A DNA stretch of 53,384 nt from Pseudomonadota bacterium. Lineage in GTDB: Bacteria > Desulfobacterota > Desulfobacteria > Desulfobacterales > JBDRRP01. The notes beneath the pieces were generated by a model. It had not been told where the DNA came from, did no database searches, and saw only the letters and a program-made list of their open reading frames with translations. Made by a program: the position numbers and the translations under genes. Positions within the stretch are counted from its first letter, which is position 1. The number at the start of each line of letters is the position of its first letter. Positions 1 through 4,518 of this stretch are shown here, in pieces. The stretch lies in the NCBI GenBank assembly GCA_043825735.1, contig JBDRRP010000055.1, positions 62,001 through 115,384 on the forward strand, read 5' to 3'.

Positions 1-465
1 GATCATGGGGCGTTCGTTTCGGCGGCTGCGCCGATGGATCTCCCGCGCCACCAGTTCCTTGCCGGTCCCGGATTCTCCCAAAATCAGCACGCTGGCGTCG
101 GTCGGCGCCACCAGCTCGATCTGCTGGATCACGGTCTTCAGCACGGGCGCCTCCCCGATGATGTCCCCGCAGGCGTGCAGCCCCTCGAGTTCCTCCCGAA
201 GAAAGACGTTTTCCGCCTGAAGCCGGTCCTTGAGCACCTTCAACTCTGCAGTGCGCAGGGCCACCGTGCTTTCGAGCGCATCATTGGCGGCGCGTATTTT
301 CTCTTCGCTTTTCTTGAGCTCGGCGACGTGAATGCTGCAGTCCAGTTTGAGCGCGTCTGCGGTTTCACGCAGCACGCGCTCCGAAGCTTCCAGTTCGGCC
401 ACCCGTCTGCGCAGCGCTTCTGTCTCCTGAAACTGTTGTTTGCCGGTCTTTTTGGCTCGAGCCAT
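1..465 (-). CDS. Sigma54-dependent transcriptional activator (NtrC/FhlA-type enhancer-binding protein), runs off the left edge (C-terminal part missing)
   Basis: Not in ORF track. Manual translation from ATG at 465: MARAKKTGKQQFQETEALRRRVAELE...RTAELKVLKDRLQAENVFLREELEG...[55 protein letters not shown]. Contains the Walker A GESGTGKE of sigma54 AAA+ domains. Confidence 0.9.
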   Translation of the reverse strand, partial: MARAKKTGKQQFQETEALRRRVAELEASERVLRETADALKLDCSIHVAELKKSEEKIRAANDALESTVALRTAELKVLKDRLQAENVFLREELEGLHACGDIIGEAPVLKTVIQQIELVAPTDASVLILGESGTGKELVAREIHRRSRRNERPMI

Positions 466-651
466 GTCGTCATTTCCGATAACAGGGGGACCTGCTTATG
501 TACAGTTCTCAAGTTGACTTTACCTGCGGCACTGCGTGGTGATCAAAAACATCAGGGGCTGCGAGTCACCGGCACGGTAATTGTGTTCTGTGCATAACCA
601 GATAGGGAAAAACGCCGTTGCCTGTCGATAAGCATTATTTTGGAGTTTCTC

Positions 652-682
652 AACAAAATCTTGATCGCATCAAAATTTTGAT
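652..682. promoter_or_regulatory. Tandem 14-bp palindromic sites, candidate upstream activator sequence
   Basis: AACAAAATCTTGAT (652-665) and the perfect palindrome ATCAAAATTTTGAT (669-682) in an AT-rich island about 70-100 bp upstream of a sigma54-like motif. Confidence 0.5.
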
Positions 683-749: not shown

Positions 750-765
750 CGGCACGGTAATTGAA
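750..765 (+). promoter_or_regulatory. Sigma54-like -24/-12 promoter (non-canonical -12)
   Basis: CGGCACGGTAATTGAA = GG-N10-GA versus consensus TGGCACG-N4-TTGC. The same 14-mer CGGCACGGTAATTG also occurs at 570-583. Confidence 0.45.
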
Positions 766-998
766 AAGGATATAAGCGATGCGACCCCTCTCAGACAGAC
801 GGCCCTTCCCGGAGCCAGTCGGCGCCACGCAGCGGCATACTCATGGTGGTGCTTCATTCAGCGGATCGGGCCGCCACCGGGAGCGTTCTTGACCTTTTCG
901 GCGTAAAAGCGCACAGGCTGCGGTCGCCGGTAAGGCGATCGCCGTGAACTGAGCAGGGCGTTGCGCATGAATTCAATGATCAACCATGGAGGAGCGCC

Positions 999-1151
999 AT
1001 GAGCAATGATAATGATGAATCCAAAAAAGATGTCAGCGAAGAATCCGACAACCGTCAAGATGGCGACAGGGCCTGTTGCTTTGTGGTCGATCCCTGCGGC
1101 TGCTATGTGGATCCGTGCGGTTGCATGACGAGATATTCCTGTTGCTGTTAG
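999..1151 (+). CDS. Small cysteine-rich peptide, 50 aa, 9 Cys (metallothionein-like or RiPP-precursor-like)
   Basis: GGAGGAG RBS just upstream. Manual translation MSNDNDESKKDVSEESDNRQDGDRACCFVVDPCGCYVDPCGCMTRYSCCC*. Below the ORF-track length cutoff. Confidence 0.75.
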   Translation: MSNDNDESKKDVSEESDNRQDGDRACCFVVDPCGCYVDPCGCMTRYSCCC

Positions 1152-1184
1152 ACAACAGGCCTGCGACAGAAAGGAGTTTCAGCC

Positions 1185-1376
1185 ATGAAGGACATTCTCA
1201 AACGCGACATTACCGGTGAATGTGTCGGCGAGTGCAAGGACACCGTAAACGAGGGTTACCGGAACCGACAGTCCGCTATCAATGCCGAAGGCGGCGACTG
1301 GCCGGACACGTTCCCCAGGGTGTCCAGTGCAAGCGCCCGTAACGCGCCGCCCGGGTTTCTCGGGGGACACGTCTAA
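1185..1376 (+). CDS. Small hypothetical protein (63 aa, CxxxC), probably co-transcribed with the Cys-rich peptide
   Basis: AAAGGAG RBS upstream of the ATG; starts 33 bp after the stop of the 999-1151 ORF. Confidence 0.6.
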   Translation: MKDILKRDITGECVGECKDTVNEGYRNRQSAINAEGGDWPDTFPRVSSASARNAPPGFLGGHV

Positions 1377-1524
1377 GCGGTGACGCAGCAGCAACCGTGC
1401 AGACGGGTCGGACGCCTGCCGGCGCCCGGCGGGCGTCCTTTTATGGCAACGCCGAGAGGCTTGCCGAATCCGGCCTGCAGCGCAAACGCCTGAGGGTTGA
1501 GGCGATACAGCTGCCGGATGGTGC

Positions 1525-4518
1525 TCAGGCCGGGGACTCACCAGGCAGGATCACACCCTGCCCCGTGCGGCCGTTGATCTTTATGACCAGCGGCGCGTCG
1601 AGCCGGATGTGACGGATGTACTGCGATTCGGCAGCGGCCGGGTGGGCGTCGAGCCATTGATAGTCGAAACATCCGTCGGCGCCTTCGGTAATGGTAATGT
1701 AGGGGATTCCCAGGGCGGTGATGTTCTGGAAAAAATGCGAGCCCTGGGACGGATCGGCATGAAGCAGTTGGTTTCGGATCTCGACGATGGCGCCGACAGC
1801 CGAGATCTGGTGCCACTGCACCGGAATCCCCAGCCAGCGATCCGCCGAGCCCCAGCGGCCTGGCCCCACCAACAGGTAGGGCCGGTGCTGGGCGGATAAG
1901 TCGGCATTGATGCGGCCCACGGCCTCGGCCATCTGGGCGGTGGCGGCGGCCTCGAAGGTATCGGGCCGCACATACACCACGTCCCGGATGGTTTCCAGGC
2001 GGCCGTTTCCCAGCGCCGATGACGAGTTGCAGACCGCGGTCTGCAGCTCTTCTGCCAAGATATCCACTTCAAAGACATCTCCCCCGGCGGCCATGGGACG
2101 CATCTGCAGAAAGTAGAACGCATCCTTTCGATCGCTGCCTTCCGGGGCCAGGTCCACGGCGAACTCCATCTCGACCGGACACCCCATCCCTTTTCGCCCA
2201 AGAGCGAGTAGATCGGCCAAGAGATTTGCCAGGGGAAAACGGCGGTATTTGAGCACCGAAGCGAAGGTAATGACTGTCGGGCCTTTTCCGGTAAAGGAAT
2301 CCCTGATCCGATGCTCGTCGATAATATAGGTGCTGGCAAGGGTGTTGACCGGGTACTCTCCAGCGGCGTCGTCGATGTCACGCTTTTCCAGGTTGGCATT
2401 GGTGAGATAGTTAAGCGCTTCAGGGCAATCCTCGATTTTTAATGCGTAAAAATACCGCTGGGCGTTTTCGAGCATATCATCCACAGAAGAAAACTGAGGC
2501 ATCACGCCGGGATGCCGGGGAGAGAAGCGCAGGCACCGCTCCCCCTGAACCACCGTTCGCCCCATTCCCAGTGCCACCAGGGCAATGCCGTCATCGGCCG
2601 TCATGGGAGCGACCGGGTAGTAGTTGTGACTCTGAGCCACCCCGGCGAAGGTGGGATAAAAATACTTCCCGTAGCGGCTTCCGGCCAGTTCCTGGATGAT
2701 GACGGCCATCGCCTCTTCCTGGGGTTGAGTGGCGATGTGCCGGGAATAGGCGCGCGGGTTCTCGTAAAAGGTGGAGGCGTAGACCAGTTTCACGGCATCA
2801 ACCAACTGAGACAGACGCAGCGCCGGGTCAGGGGCGTTGTTGGGGATCATATAGGTTTCGTAAAGACCGGCATAGGGCTGAAACTGGGCATCTTCAAGAA
2901 GACTCGACGAGCGCACCGACAAGGGGAACGTCACCTGTCGACTGAAGGCCGTCAACTGCTCGAGCAGCGGGGGCGGCATGTCTGCCGCCAAAAATCGCCG
3001 GGTGACCTCACGATTGTCCAGATCCTCGGCAGCGGCAAGATCGCCCATCTGATTGTACTCGAGGAACGCCTCGAACCCGTCGGTGCAGATCACCAGTGTG
3101 CGCGGCACCTGAATGTCCACGGTGGGGTAGGCTTCGTGCAGCTCCGCCGATTCCTGAAGCATGGCCGACATGAATGCGAGGCTTCTGGCCTTCCCGCCCA
3201 GGGAGCCGGATCCGATCCGAACGAAGTCCATGACCTCCGGGTCGTAGTGGGCGCCCTTGAACTGGGCCACCACCCCTTTTTGACGCAACCGCCGCAGCGC
3301 CCGGATGTTGTCGATGAGATACCGACGCATCCCGGCGATGTTTTCGAACGCTTCCACGTGCACCGTCCGAAACACCGACGCGAGCGCGATTTCCGAGCGC
3401 CCCATGATCCAGTTGGAAAAATGGTTCCGGCGGGCGTGGTAGAGCAAAGACGCCTCCGGCACCTCGGCGATACGCTCCTGAAGCTCTCTCAGGTTGGCTG
3501 CCCGTGCCGTCTCGGTCCCATCCGGCAGTCGGAATACGAAATCACCGAATCCTAAATGGGAAAGAAAAAAGGCATGGATCTCCGCCAGCAGATGGGGGGC
3601 GTTCTTGTCGAGAAACACGGCTGGCACGGCAGCGGCACGGCCGGCGTTTTCGGGGTTCGCGCTGAGAAGCAGCAGCGGCAGGTCCGGGATTTCCGCCCGG
3701 ACCCGGGTGAGCAGCTCCCAGCCGGCATCTGGATTCATCGCGCCGCCTCGCGGCATCCGGGTGTCCGAGATCACCCCGAACATGTAGTCTTTGTACTGCT
3801 CGTAAGCGGCCACCGCCTCATCGTAGGTTTCAGCCAGCAGTATTTTGGGTCGTGCCCGCATTTTCAGCAAACGATGGTCTTCATTGAGTCCTTCCATAAG
3901 GATGCCCTGGGTCTGACGCACCACTTCCTTGTAAACCAGCGGCAGCAGCAGCGACTGATAGACCGGGTTGTCTTCCACCAGCAGCAGCACCCTCACCTGG
4001 GCACGCCGGCAGTCGCGGGCCACGTTCATGCGGTCTTCGACATTCTTCACGAGTGCCAGCAGCAGGTCGCTGTTACCGGACCAGATGGCCATGCGGTCAA
4101 TGCCCCTTCGATGCTTGCCGGGAGGCACCGGGAAAATACCGCGGGTGCTGTGGGCCAGCAGGATCACCGGCAACTCGGGGCGCAGCCGTTTGACCGCCGC
4201 GCCAAAGGAGAAAGCGTCCATGTCATCCAGGTGCGGCATGGTGAGCACCAGGTCCACGGTCATTTCACCGATGATTTCCAGAGCCCTGCGGGCGCTGGCA
4301 ATGCGGGTGACCCGTGGCGGATGGCTCAGATTCAACCCGCTGTATTCGGTAATGATGCGAGTGGCCAGGCTGCCGTCTTCCTCAAGAATAAAGGCATCGT
4401 ACGGGCTCGACACCAGAAGGATCTGACGCACCTTATTGGCCATGAGCTCGTGGTAAATCTTAAAGTTTGCGGAAAACCCGGTGTCCGTTGCGCTGATTCT
4501 GGCGTCTTTGGGTTTCAT
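1525..4518 (-). CDS. Receiver-domain / PEP-pyruvate-binding (PPDK_N, PEP-synthase-like) fusion protein
   Basis: 997 aa. Two N-terminal REC-like regions (ILLVSSPYDAF; VLLLVED...GVISD), then PPDK_N ATP-grasp motifs GGKARSL, SVRSSSLLED, MAVIIQE, EMEFAVD, FLQMRP. Confidence 0.85.
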   Translation of the reverse strand: MKPKDARISATDTGFSANFKIYHELMANKVRQILLVSSPYDAFILEEDGSLATRIITEYSGLNLSHPPRVTRIASARRALEIIGEMTVDLVLTMPHLDDMDAFSFGAAVKRLRPELPVILLAHSTRGIFPVPPGKHRRGIDRMAIWSGNSDLLLALVKNVEDRMNVARDCRRAQVRVLLLVEDNPVYQSLLLPLVYKEVVRQTQGILMEGLNEDHRLLKMRARPKILLAETYDEAVAAYEQYKDYMFGVISDTRMPRGGAMNPDAGWELLTRVRAEIPDLPLLLLSANPENAGRAAAVPAVFLDKNAPHLLAEIHAFFLSHLGFGDFVFRLPDGTETARAANLRELQERIAEVPEASLLYHARRNHFSNWIMGRSEIALASVFRTVHVEAFENIAGMRRYLIDNIRALRRLRQKGVVAQFKGAHYDPEVMDFVRIGSGSLGGKARSLAFMSAMLQESAELHEAYPTVDIQVPRTLVICTDGFEAFLEYNQMGDLAAAEDLDNREVTRRFLAADMPPPLLEQLTAFSRQVTFPLSVRSSSLLEDAQFQPYAGLYETYMIPNNAPDPALRLSQLVDAVKLVYASTFYENPRAYSRHIATQPQEEAMAVIIQELAGSRYGKYFYPTFAGVAQSHNYYPVAPMTADDGIALVALGMGRTVVQGERCLRFSPRHPGVMPQFSSVDDMLENAQRYFYALKIEDCPEALNYLTNANLEKRDIDDAAGEYPVNTLASTYIIDEHRIRDSFTGKGPTVITFASVLKYRRFPLANLLADLLALGRKGMGCPVEMEFAVDLAPEGSDRKDAFYFLQMRPMAAGGDVFEVDILAEELQTAVCNSSSALGNGRLETIRDVVYVRPDTFEAAATAQMAEAVGRINADLSAQHRPYLLVGPGRWGSADRWLGIPVQWHQISAVGAIVEIRNQLLHADPSQGSHFFQNITALGIPYITITEGADGCFDYQWLDAHPAAAESQYIRHIRLDAPLVIKINGRTGQGVILPGESPA

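Follow-up and report, generated by a model that had tools for sequence, protein, structure and literature searches.

The window, the whole 53,384-nucleotide stretch of DNA that we analyzed, carries an open reading frame for a 50-aa peptide with nine cysteines. It is followed by a second cistron and an intrinsic terminator, and is preceded by a putative sigma-54-type promoter, putative activator-binding sites (UAS) and the divergent gene of a sigma-54 activator (Table 1).

Table 1 Features of the cysteine-rich peptide locus in window coordinates
Feature	Position	Strand	Basis or remark
5' part of divergent sigma-54 enhancer-binding activator gene	1..465	-	Pfam Sigma54_activat 3.1e-14 on the fragment
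14-nt CGGCACGGTAATTG, second exact copy, upstream of the putative activator sites	570..583	+	repeat search
Putative activator-binding sites (UAS)	653..681	none	ACAAAATCTTGA at 653-664; perfect palindrome TCAAAATTTTGA at 670-681
Putative sigma-54-type promoter GGCACGGTAATTGA	751..764	+	-24 GG, -12 TTGA (canonical TTGC)
Shine-Dalgarno GGAGGAG of peptide gene	988..994	+	4 nt before ATG
Cys-repeat peptide gene, 50 aa	999..1151	+	homologs, dN/dS, overlapping RNA-library contigs
Shine-Dalgarno AAGGAG of second cistron	1171..1176	+	
Second cistron, 63 aa, conserved CxxxC family	1185..1376	+	alignments
Intrinsic terminator	1410..1444	+	13-bp stem with 11 G-C pairs, 3-nt loop, then TTTTAT

The peptide gene and its operon

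The peptide ORF ends with a TAG at 1149-1151 and encodes MSNDNDESKKDVSEESDNRQDGDRACCFVVDPCGCYVDPCGCMTRYSCCC. All nine cysteines lie within the last 25 residues, and residues 26-50 read CC-FVVDPCGC-YVDPCGC-MTRYS-CCC; the half before it, residues 1-25, is charged and probably disordered. The first-pass annotation had singled out this ORF, and its coordinates, translation and ribosome-binding site, the two copies of VDPCGC and the CCC directly followed by the stop codon were all reproduced here. The acidic leader that it had described is found in the window copy (net charge about -5) but not in the homologs, whose leaders are K-rich and even net-positive. The conserved property of the leader is therefore that it is charged and hydrophilic, not that it is acidic. 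The position of the gene as first cistron of a sigma-54/activator operon, the 63-aa partner gene and a paralog elsewhere in the genome had gone unmentioned.

We scanned the whole genome for cysteine density in stop-to-stop frames of at least 40 aa. Only 6 of 93,747 frames contained at least nine cysteines in a 26-aa window: the peptide ORF, its paralog on another contig (61% identity to the peptide), and four low-complexity or antisense frames. The cysteine density of the ORF is beyond chance, and the ORF is a real gene. Contigs from three sediment RNA libraries, 95-99% identical to the window, overlie positions 794-1041, 1058-1208 and 1205-1355, and contigs of other family members occur in the same libraries at depths of 6-18. 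Since such libraries can contain DNA, the contigs are no proof of transcription. They do not cover 700-793 and 1356-1500, which is compatible with a promoter-to-terminator transcript, missing cover being no evidence in itself. The putative 5' UTR (776-1020) showed no sign of a structured leader (z = 0.06 versus shuffles), and Rfam returned no match at E ≤ 1 over 440-1560. An 18-nt inverted repeat (840-857/986-1003) could mask the Shine-Dalgarno site of the peptide gene. AlphaFold predicted no autonomous fold for the peptide (pLDDT 54), and a search of the ESM Atlas gave no usable match.

The second cistron encodes a protein with the motif RDITGxCxGxC ... RNxPPGxxGG(H/R)V, in which R7, D8, G11, C13, G15, C17, R28, Q29, I32, R52, P56, G57, G60 and G61 are invariant. 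Its family, labeled 'hypothetical protein' at the source and matching no Pfam or NCBIfam family, is present in 70 of 401 Desulfobacterales genomes; in six of them it is no more than about 1 kb away from the peptide gene. Stand-alone copies have neither the promoter nor the UAS, and their neighbors are not conserved. AlphaFold2 predicted one helix at residues 20-34 (pLDDT 61.7), a model too poor for a fold search. The score of 0.02 for a predicted complex between peptide and 63-aa protein speaks neither for nor against binding.

A family of cysteine-packed mini-proteins

The homolog search proposed in the first-pass annotation returned homologs with conserved cysteine spacing. A profile built from seven members matched 45 of 401 Desulfobacterales genomes (32 of 174 genera) and only 2 of 401 genomes in a sample of the phylum, one of which is the window's own genome. 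Among 1.84 billion proteins it recovered 106 cluster representatives at E ≤ 1e-3. Ninety-six of them look genuine, and 74 of the genuine ones end in CCC. The family is almost limited to Desulfobacterales sulfate reducers. P0004, a protein of 1218 aa that was the best match in the protein search, was discarded as an unrelated repeat protein with only a VVDPxGCYVDPC string in common.

Members are about 44-58 aa long and consist of a charged, poorly conserved N-terminal half, a CC pair, two to four tandem YVDPCGC heptads (full range one to four) spaced as CxC-x4-CxC-x4, and the terminal CCC, with the stop codon directly after the last cysteine. The core holds 6-12 cysteines (mode 9-10), and in each heptad these are accompanied by an invariant Asp and by strongly conserved Y, V and P residues. 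A loose (D/E)x(D/N)IKK motif recurs in the leaders. Nearly all homologs have a GGAGG-type Shine-Dalgarno site 6-9 nt before the ATG. We examined dN/dS in ten pairs: that of the core was 0.02-0.09 at a pS of about 0.6 in five of them and 0.46 in one barely diverged pair, and it was not computable in four saturated pairs; that of the leader was 0.11-0.55 in the seven computable pairs. Paralogs lie scattered and have separate regulatory regions. By a rough pattern, most representatives (81/96) belong to a sub-family A, which has no activator, UAS or PilZ partner. A Cys-sensing attenuator leader peptide was rejected, because strong purifying selection acts on residues other than Cys and the genes downstream differ from locus to locus.

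The family has no Pfam or NCBIfam match, and PDB sequences gave only chance matches to the profile (E 0.23 and 0.95). Its motif strings do not occur in the literature searched, where none of the papers listed joined Desulfobacterales names with cysteine-rich or metallothionein terms, and those listed on bacterial metallothioneins and Desulfo- organisms, or on sigma-54 and cysteine-rich small proteins of sulfate reducers, were not relevant. These results indicate that the family is undescribed, as the first-pass annotation had suggested, and that it combines conserved Cys spacing with purifying selection and strong Shine-Dalgarno sites.

The leader-plus-core layout had raised the possibility of an orphan RiPP precursor. 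Like the ranthipeptide precursors (PapA/freyrasin, SCIFF), the peptide joins a leader to a C-terminal Cys-rich core within about 45-50 aa. As described in the available part of PMC9413430, PapA carries repeated Cys...Asp units in the form of six CX3D motifs that are modified by PapB, and PapB accepts Cys-Xn-Asp with n = 0-6. A radical-SAM enzyme encoded elsewhere might in a PapB-like manner install Cys-to-Asp thioethers across the C...D units of the repeated core, for which the Cys and invariant Asp of every heptad, the Y-V-D-P conservation and the leader motif would be suitable. SPASM-like radical-SAM genes, scoring below family cut-offs, do occur elsewhere in the genome.

We compared the neighborhoods of 21 loci (±8 kb, with Pfam searches on 140 neighboring ORFs). 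Whereas ranthipeptide precursors sit beside a radical-SAM/SPASM maturase, no maturase, protease, exporter or other enzyme is conserved beside the peptide gene in these loci, and a RiPP precursor is therefore unlikely. A B12-radical-SAM gene lies near the peptide in one of the 21 loci, on the opposite strand. The earlier observation that no radical-SAM or YcaO gene is adjacent extends, by Pfam, to about 12 kb upstream and 10 kb downstream of the gene. The window's own genome, which is 100% complete, has no match to MbnB/DUF692 (PF05114); its two YcaO genes are on other contigs, as are its matches to TIGR03974 and TIGR04115, which stay below cut-off, so that no SCIFF- or CXXX-type maturase is called. 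None of 64 members matched a relevant NCBIfam precursor family at E ≤ 10. The dispersed paralogs with promoters of their own, and a leader that is the least conserved part of the peptide and does not conserve its charge, also argue against a precursor. Taken together, these findings weaken the precursor proposal, and we consider maturation by a distant enzyme quite unlikely.

The remaining neighbors are the sigma-54 activator, housekeeping genes or, within one genus, a TetR gene (three genomes). Metal-sensing regulators (ArsR/SmtB, CsoR, classical MerR) are not consistently linked in the 21 loci, and a metal transporter, an HMA-type P-type ATPase, adjoins one (L069). Two candidate partners were dropped, a PLP enzyme near three loci, which is a threonine ammonia-lyase, and an aconitase near two loci, which is a housekeeping enzyme.

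The control region of the window's sub-family

The activator gene extends past the window start and encodes 424 aa in full (L071:11194-12465). Its product has a coiled-coil N-terminus of about 100 aa, an AAA+ sigma-54 interaction domain and HTH_8 (Pfam Sigma54_activat 8.5e-73, with AAA_lid_14 and HTH_8); Pfam recognized no sensor domain. In G155, G298, G042, G075 and a Desulfosarcina MAG, the peptide gene has an orthologous activator with an LKDRLQAEN linker nearby; the G155 and G042 activators contain a PAS domain. The putative UAS lie about 70-100 nt upstream of the promoter, and two or three TCAAAAnnTTTGA-like palindromes occupy the same relative place in the sub-family loci. The two copies of CGGCACGGTAATTG, at 570-583 and 750-763, are 100% identical.

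The promoter pattern GG[CT]A[CT]-N5-TTG[AT] precedes the ATG by 71-248 nt in 6 of 30 family loci; all six are from the window's sub-family. The opposite strand gave 0 of 30, and shuffles a mean of 0.89 per 30; L066, L082 and L093 are further cases. GGCAC-N5-TTG is conserved in nine sub-family loci with A or T, not C, as the last base. The canonical TGGCAC-N5-TTGC (at least 8/10 matches) does not occur upstream of the window gene; upstream of the 30 family loci it gave two weak matches, neither in the window, and over the whole window its frequency was not above chance (59 versus 67.7 expected). The genome encodes rpoN (G000:C4), so that an adjacent activator gene, position-conserved upstream palindromes and rpoN are all present. 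The control module of divergent activator, TCAAAAnnTTTGA palindromes and GGCAC-N5-TTG(A/T) promoter recurs in nine loci.

This arrangement resembles ZraSR-ZraP and PspF-PspA: there, too, a small stress-protein operon with upstream palindromes and a -24/-12 promoter has its own enhancer-binding activator, encoded divergently, and PspF is another activator that has no sensor domain. It differs from them in its unrelated target genes, in its -12 element (TTGA/TTGT), and in an activator with a coiled-coil N-terminus and, in some genomes, PAS.

The peptide might act within this circuit. Together with the 63-aa CxxxC protein or a PilZ-like protein, it could serve as sensor or anti-activator for an activator without a sensor domain of its own. 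A genome-wide scan for promoter plus palindrome gave six places. Of these, only the loci of the window peptide and of its paralog had two palindrome matches, suggesting that the circuit is a dedicated one and may be autoregulatory. A PilZ-like protein directly follows the peptide gene in four sub-family loci, though not in the window, with visible RxxxR and (D/N)xSxxG motifs. Its PF07238 scores (19.8, 17.4 and 13.0 bits) nevertheless stay below the cut-off of 22.5, the majority sub-family A has none of these components, and the very strong Shine-Dalgarno sites and the RNA-contig depths of other members suit an abundant effector. We judge a signaling role very improbable.

Other observations bear on a redox role, in which the cysteine module would be a sacrificial or reversible thiol/disulfide, persulfide or Fe-S buffer protecting a strict anaerobe from O2 or oxidants, or the peptide a small Fe-S carrier. 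In G298 the same activator, UAS and promoter precede an Fe/Mn superoxide dismutase, an ORF2-like gene and the peptide. PAS domains, present in two orthologous activators, commonly serve as redox/O2 sensors, two cysteines of the co-transcribed 63-aa protein form an invariant CxxxC pair, and the sulfate reducers to which the family is confined are strictly anaerobic. However, only one genome shows the dismutase linkage, genes for thioredoxin, peroxiredoxin or rubrerythrin do not recur nearby, sub-family A lacks such a regulator and, to our knowledge, the Cys spacing corresponds to no known Fe-S motif. A redox function is unlikely in our estimate. For the metallothionein-like reading given below, the dismutase arrangement in G298 and the ATPase at L069 are weak hints of stress.

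Possible metal binding and known systems

We tentatively favor, at somewhat less than an even chance, a cytoplasmic metallothionein-like thiolate peptide made in response to a stress signal. The first-pass annotation had offered a new metallothionein-like family; the new family is borne out, and we infer its metal function from the cysteine pattern alone. The operational traits of metallothioneins are present: small size, a high cysteine content arranged as CC...CxC-x4-CxC...CCC and no enzymatic domain. Nine is also the cysteine count of one three-metal metallothionein domain. The variable number of heptads is reminiscent of modular metal-binding proteins, and the predicted lack of an autonomous fold is as expected for an apo-thiolate peptide. 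The dispersed paralogs and the absence of a conserved enzyme neighbor would suit stand-alone action. What counts against a metallothionein is that Y, V, D and P of the heptad are conserved much more than is usual in such proteins, which speaks for a defined fold or for the heptad being recognized by an enzyme or other partner. The lack of a consistently linked metal sensor, the single metal transporter in 21 loci, the non-canonical -12 element and the failure to match Pfam metallothionein models count against this reading as well. The leader motif could be a recognition element by analogy with RiPP leaders.

In the metallothionein-like reading, the divergent activator would bind the TCAAAAnnTTTGA palindromes on an inducing signal and fire the GGCAC-N5-TTGA promoter, so that the gene would not be constitutive in the window's sub-family. 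The resulting bicistronic mRNA for the peptide and the 63-aa CxxxC protein would end at the terminator, and the peptide would be translated and stay in the cytoplasm like the rest of the family. Its C-terminal module would fold only around thiophilic metal ions and act as a metal buffer or sequestering peptide, while the N-terminal half would remain a charged, fast-evolving, probably disordered tail.

Bacterial metallothioneins that are lineage-specific and non-homologous to each other have precedents in SmtA and in MymT, a 4.9-kDa protein that was initially unannotated; in the available part of PMC7558416, MymT is described as a small, cytoplasmic, lineage-restricted Cys-rich protein without homology to other metallothioneins, stress-induced and with a predicted multi-metal thiolate core. 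We found no sequence relation to the peptide, the MymT sequence not having been compared directly. In contrast to MymT, the window's family has tandem YVDPCGC heptads, a charged N-terminal half of 25 aa and a CCC end, the window gene would depend on sigma-54 and an activator instead of a metal repressor, and its metal binding is suggested by sequence only. SmtA and BmtA (PF02069), which sequester metal, are likewise bacterial, small and Cys-rich, but the fold of SmtA is zinc-finger-like and includes His ligands (PMC7558416, same part) and the peptide spaces its cysteines differently. Neither the window peptide nor, at E ≤ 10, any of 64 members matched a metallothionein Pfam model, PF02069 included, in line with the earlier remark that the spacing is unlike SmtA/BmtA.

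A more specific possibility is that the heptad array is an encoded string of Cys-Gly-Cys sites that bind nickel or another thiophilic metal, as a buffer or chaperone of complete-oxidizing sulfate reducers. One sub-family would make it on demand through its private sigma-54 activator, with the CxxxC and PilZ-like proteins. The hydrogenases and CO dehydrogenase/acetyl-CoA synthase of these organisms need much nickel. The CxxCGC motif in an intrinsically disordered extension of HypB binds Ni(II) at picomolar affinity (PMC12284835, in the part available), and the Cys-Gly-Cys tripeptide binds Ni and models the distal site of acetyl-CoA synthase (PMC10299331, likewise in part). The peptide has two to three Cys-Gly-Cys units, a likeness at the motif level only. 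As high-affinity metal sites, these CGC motifs are also precedents for the broader metallothionein-like reading. Unlike HypB, which uses its N-terminal amine as a ligand, it has no GTPase domain, and no hyp, cooC or acs linkage was seen in the 21 loci. We regard this more specific version as distinctly improbable.

Metallothionein-like proteins of bacteria are rare and lineage-specific, and none has been described for sulfate reducers in the literature searched. Sulfate reducers are surrounded by sulfide-bound metals and rely strongly on enzymes of Ni, Fe, Co, Mo and W. The present family is compact (~50 aa), modular and abundant enough to be seen in sediment RNA libraries, and its members are usually missed or labeled 'hypothetical'. 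The conserved 63-aa partner is a second family without an assigned function, and the activator, palindromes and non-canonical -12 element that occur together in nine loci offer a testable sigma-54 regulon of only one or two operons. Should the nickel/Cys-Gly-Cys reading be true, the peptides would define a novel type of metal-handling peptide in bacteria, and the logic of their regulation would be new as well. If the family does bind metal, it would provide a minimal scaffold for peptide-based metal capture and a new way to approach metal homeostasis, and possibly tolerance to Hg, Cd, Cu or Ni, in bacteria that drive the carbon and sulfur cycles of the sea.

A constrained family of cysteine-rich peptides

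The start and stop codons, the Shine-Dalgarno (SD) sequence and the cysteine pattern claimed in the first-pass annotation were all confirmed. The peptide, MSNDNDESKKDVSEESDNRQDGDRACCFVVDPCGCYVDPCGCMTRYSCCC, has 50 aa and 9 Cys, every one within the last 25 residues. In the whole 6.8-Mb genome, only 6 of 93,747 stop-to-stop frames of at least 40 aa had a 26-residue stretch with at least 9 Cys. This ORF and a paralog account for two of them and simple-repeat or antisense frames for the other four, so that a composition effect is excluded. The paralog lies on a separate contig (G000:C40:118222-118374; 61% identity) and matches the window peptide in its core, CCFVVDPC.CYVDPC...RYSCCC. Three sediment RNA libraries yielded contigs with 95-99% identity to the window, covering 794-1041, 1058-1208 and 1205-1355, and contigs of other family members occur in the same libraries; this is presence in RNA libraries, short of proof of transcription.

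When 61 related genomes were searched with the single sequence, five more genomes gave clear homologs, and a profile (A1) was built from seven family members. A1 matched 45 of the 401 genomes in the order sample (34 of the 279 high-quality genomes; 32 of 174 genera). In the phylum sample it matched 2 of 401 genomes, the window's own and one other. Members are found in Desulfobacterales (Desulfosarcina and Desulfobacteraceae MAGs) and in one Desulfatiglandales MAG, and their range is patchy: the only congeneric genome besides the window's own, 97% complete, had no match. Among 1.84 billion cluster representatives, 106 proteins were matched at E<=1e-3, of which 96 showed the family architecture; the CCC end was present in 74 of the 96 and a length of 43-58 aa in 75, the longer ones looking like over-extended starts. 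Database names are 'hypothetical protein' or none. The profile-search protein P0004 was rejected as a member: it is a large, secreted-looking repeat protein of 1218 aa with eight copies of ...RWVVVDPMGCYV(D/N)PCAG..., and has only a VVDPxGCYVDPC string in common with the family, which may be either convergence or a shared mini-motif.

The N-terminal half (~20-27 residues) is rich in K, E, D and S, poorly conserved in sequence and variable in net charge; its sole recurrent feature is a loose (D/E)x(D/N)IKK close to the N-terminus. The C-terminal half runs from CC or CCC through 1-4 tandem heptads (consensus Y-V-D-P-C-G-C) to a closing CCC, with the stop codon immediately after it. In nearly all loci the ATG is preceded, at 6-9 nt, by a GGAGG-type SD. 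Two sub-families were distinguished. The majority, type A, ends in ...YVDPCGCYV(S/D)(S/P)CCC and stands alone; type B, to which the window copy belongs, closes with a unit of the kind ...DPC(G/C)C-x-(T/P)-x-Y-x-x-CCC and is accompanied by a conserved control module.

Neither Pfam nor NCBIfam yielded a meaningful match, whether to the window peptide or to any of 64 members scanned singly (E<=10); this includes the metallothionein and RiPP precursor models. The family profile found nothing credible among PDB sequences, the ESM Atlas held no match for the peptide, and the literature searched contained neither the motif strings nor anything on such peptides in sulfate reducers. AlphaFold2, run with a 64-row alignment, predicted no stable fold (mean pLDDT 54).

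Selection was assessed by pairwise codon comparisons of 10 ortholog or paralog pairs. Core dN/dS was 0.02-0.09 in five pairs with pS ~0.6 and 0.46 in one barely diverged pair; in the other four, synonymous sites were saturated and the core ratio was not computable (pN 0.00-0.12). Leader dN/dS was 0.11-0.55 in seven computable pairs. These low ratios indicate purifying selection on the peptide, foremost on the Cys module including its non-Cys positions. The ORF is a genuine gene of a new, strongly constrained small-protein family; the earlier proposal of a new family proved right, given homologs with a conserved Cys core, purifying selection and no known-family match.

The predicted sigma-54 control module and operon partners

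The window copy is predicted to sit in a sigma-54/activator-dependent bicistronic operon.

Features of the peptide operon and its surroundings in the window
Feature	Position	Strand	Remarks
Sigma-54 enhancer-binding activator, divergent	1-465 (5' part; 424 aa in full)	-	coiled-coil N-terminus, AAA+, HTH_8
Exact 14-nt direct repeat CGGCACGGTAATTG	570-583 and 750-763	+	180 nt apart
TCAAAAnnTTTGA palindromes, putative activator-binding sites	653-664, 670-681		second is a perfect palindrome
Promoter-like GG(C/T)A(C/T)-N5-TTG(A/T)	751-764	+	conservation across type-B loci
GGAGGAG Shine-Dalgarno of peptide gene	988-994	+	
Cys-peptide ORF	ATG 999, TAG 1149-1151	+	translation
63-aa ORF, SD AAGGAG	1185-1376	+	33 nt after peptide gene
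Strong terminator	1410-1444	+	after 63-aa ORF
997-aa protein gene	1525-4518	-	convergent with peptide operon

Of 30 family loci, 6 (all type B) show the promoter-like pattern at a distance of 71-248 nt before the ATG, versus 0 of 30 on the opposite strand and a shuffle mean of 0.89 of 30; three more type-B loci carry it. All nine have A or T as the last base of the -12 element, where the canonical base is C, and the promoter is putative. Two or three palindromes lie ~70-110 nt further upstream in type-B loci. The upstream CGGCACGGTAATTG copy precedes the palindromes and could represent another promoter or be left over from a duplication; the downstream copy is the proposed promoter. RpoN is encoded in the genome, where a genome-wide scan found promoter and palindrome combined at six places, with two palindrome matches only at the two peptide loci. 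A weaker third place (G000:C32, ~6879, minus strand) combines a promoter-like site, TGGCACAAATCTTGA, with a single palindrome, TCAATATTTTGA, ahead of a 469-aa chemoreceptor-like gene, possibly the third target of the window activator. This gene contains the string HKCGFGKWLY, reminiscent of the zinc-binding CZB domain.

No sensor domain was found in the window activator. Orthologs with the same LKDRLQAEN linker occur close to the peptide gene in four related genomes (G155, G298, G042, G075) and a Desulfosarcina MAG, and two of them carry a PAS domain. The paralog locus (G000:C40:110222-126374) keeps the palindromes, a promoter (GGCACGGATATTGA) and a PilZ-like second gene; of its divergent activator gene, only a coiled-coil part of ~200 aa is left, with no AAA+ domain.

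The 63-aa family has invariant residues R7, D8, G11, C13, G15, C17, R28, Q29, I32, R52, P56, G57, G60 and G61 and was found in 70 of the 401 order genomes. Both families co-occur in 20 genomes versus 7.9 expected if independent, related genomes not being independent, and the two genes lie within ~1 kb in six genomes, in three different arrangements. At the G075 locus the pair is divergently oriented around a common palindrome region, with a canonical GGCACGGTACCTGC promoter for that copy of the 63-aa gene. At four type-B loci, among them the paralog in the window's own genome, the 63-aa gene is replaced directly after the peptide by one for a PilZ-like protein of ~126 aa, with RxxxR and (D/N)xSxxG motifs and a score below the Pfam cut-off; a regulatory role of the peptide within this activator/PilZ circuit is a rival reading of its function. 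In G298 (L065:5170-8150), activator, palindromes and promoter (GGCATAACCTTTGT) precede, on one strand, genes for an Fe/Mn superoxide dismutase extended by ~50 aa at its N-terminus, the 63-aa homolog and the peptide. This linkage, the PAS-bearing activators and the CxxxC of the 63-aa partner would favour another rival, a redox/ROS thiol peptide.

Gene neighbourhoods and the RiPP question

We clustered all ORFs within +-8 kb of 20 further loci and compared 140 neighbouring ORFs with Pfam. No conserved enzyme family was found beside the peptide gene in the window or at these loci. Recurrent neighbours reflect close relatedness of the genomes. They include TetR plus HIT, confined to one genus (three genomes), as well as aconitase and threonine ammonia-lyase, both of which were rejected as partners. 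A B12-radical-SAM gene occurs at one locus, on the opposite strand to the peptide gene, and an HMA-type P-type ATPase adjoins the peptide gene at a single locus. The own genome has no MbnB/DUF692 gene, both of its YcaO genes are on other contigs, and SCIFF and CXXX-repeat maturase families gave sub-cut-off matches only. Radical-SAM/SPASM-like genes at G000:C115:30534-33530 and C34:2031-2588 (431-443 aa; two adjacent on C115) score below the same cut-offs.

Taken together, the lack of a conserved enzyme neighbour, of MbnB/DUF692 and of an above-cut-off maturase speaks against a RiPP cluster. The first-pass suggestion of an orphan RiPP precursor is weakened, with no linked modifying enzyme in the neighbourhoods and no precursor-model match. 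A precursor served by an unlinked maturase is a less likely reading: repeated Cys...Asp units are common to this family and PapA (PMC9413430).

Two further architectures were observed in these regions. The 997-aa protein joins a receiver domain to PPDK_N (PEP-utilising, ATP-grasp), with a weak match to DUF5752 as well, which is unusual for a response regulator. At L059:5023-7892 (G197) and L061:4974-7869 (G331), trimethylamine and dimethylamine methyltransferase homologs each span two consecutive ORFs (MTTB profile ~27-337 then 362-499; Dimeth_Pyl 4-353 then 357/363-462), the pattern expected of an in-frame amber (pyrrolysine) codon.

Candidate function

Among the readings considered, a metallothionein-like role appears the likeliest, and we propose it tentatively, because the CC / CxC-x4-CxC / CCC pattern places 6-12 thiolates in ~25 residues, the heptads expand modularly, and neither an autonomous fold nor a linked enzyme was found. 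The absence of a signal peptide visible by eye and of a transporter nearby was counted in its favour. Precedents exist among bacterial metallothioneins limited to particular lineages, MymT and SmtA for example (PMC7558416). Against this reading count the lack of consistent metal sensor or metal transporter linkage at the loci examined and the unusually strong conservation of Y-V-D-P, a pattern that points to a defined fold or to a partner recognising it. If the peptide is metallothionein-like, nickel would be an attractive, speculative candidate metal, since the Cys-Gly-Cys unit that it shares with HypB and with a tripeptide model of acetyl-CoA synthase binds Ni(II) tightly both in HypB and as the free tripeptide (PMC12284835 and PMC10299331, respectively).

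What is new here is the build from heptads, the confinement to a single order, the second copy in the genome, the split into two sub-families, a predicted sigma-54 circuit private to the peptide and a conserved partner protein of 63 aa.
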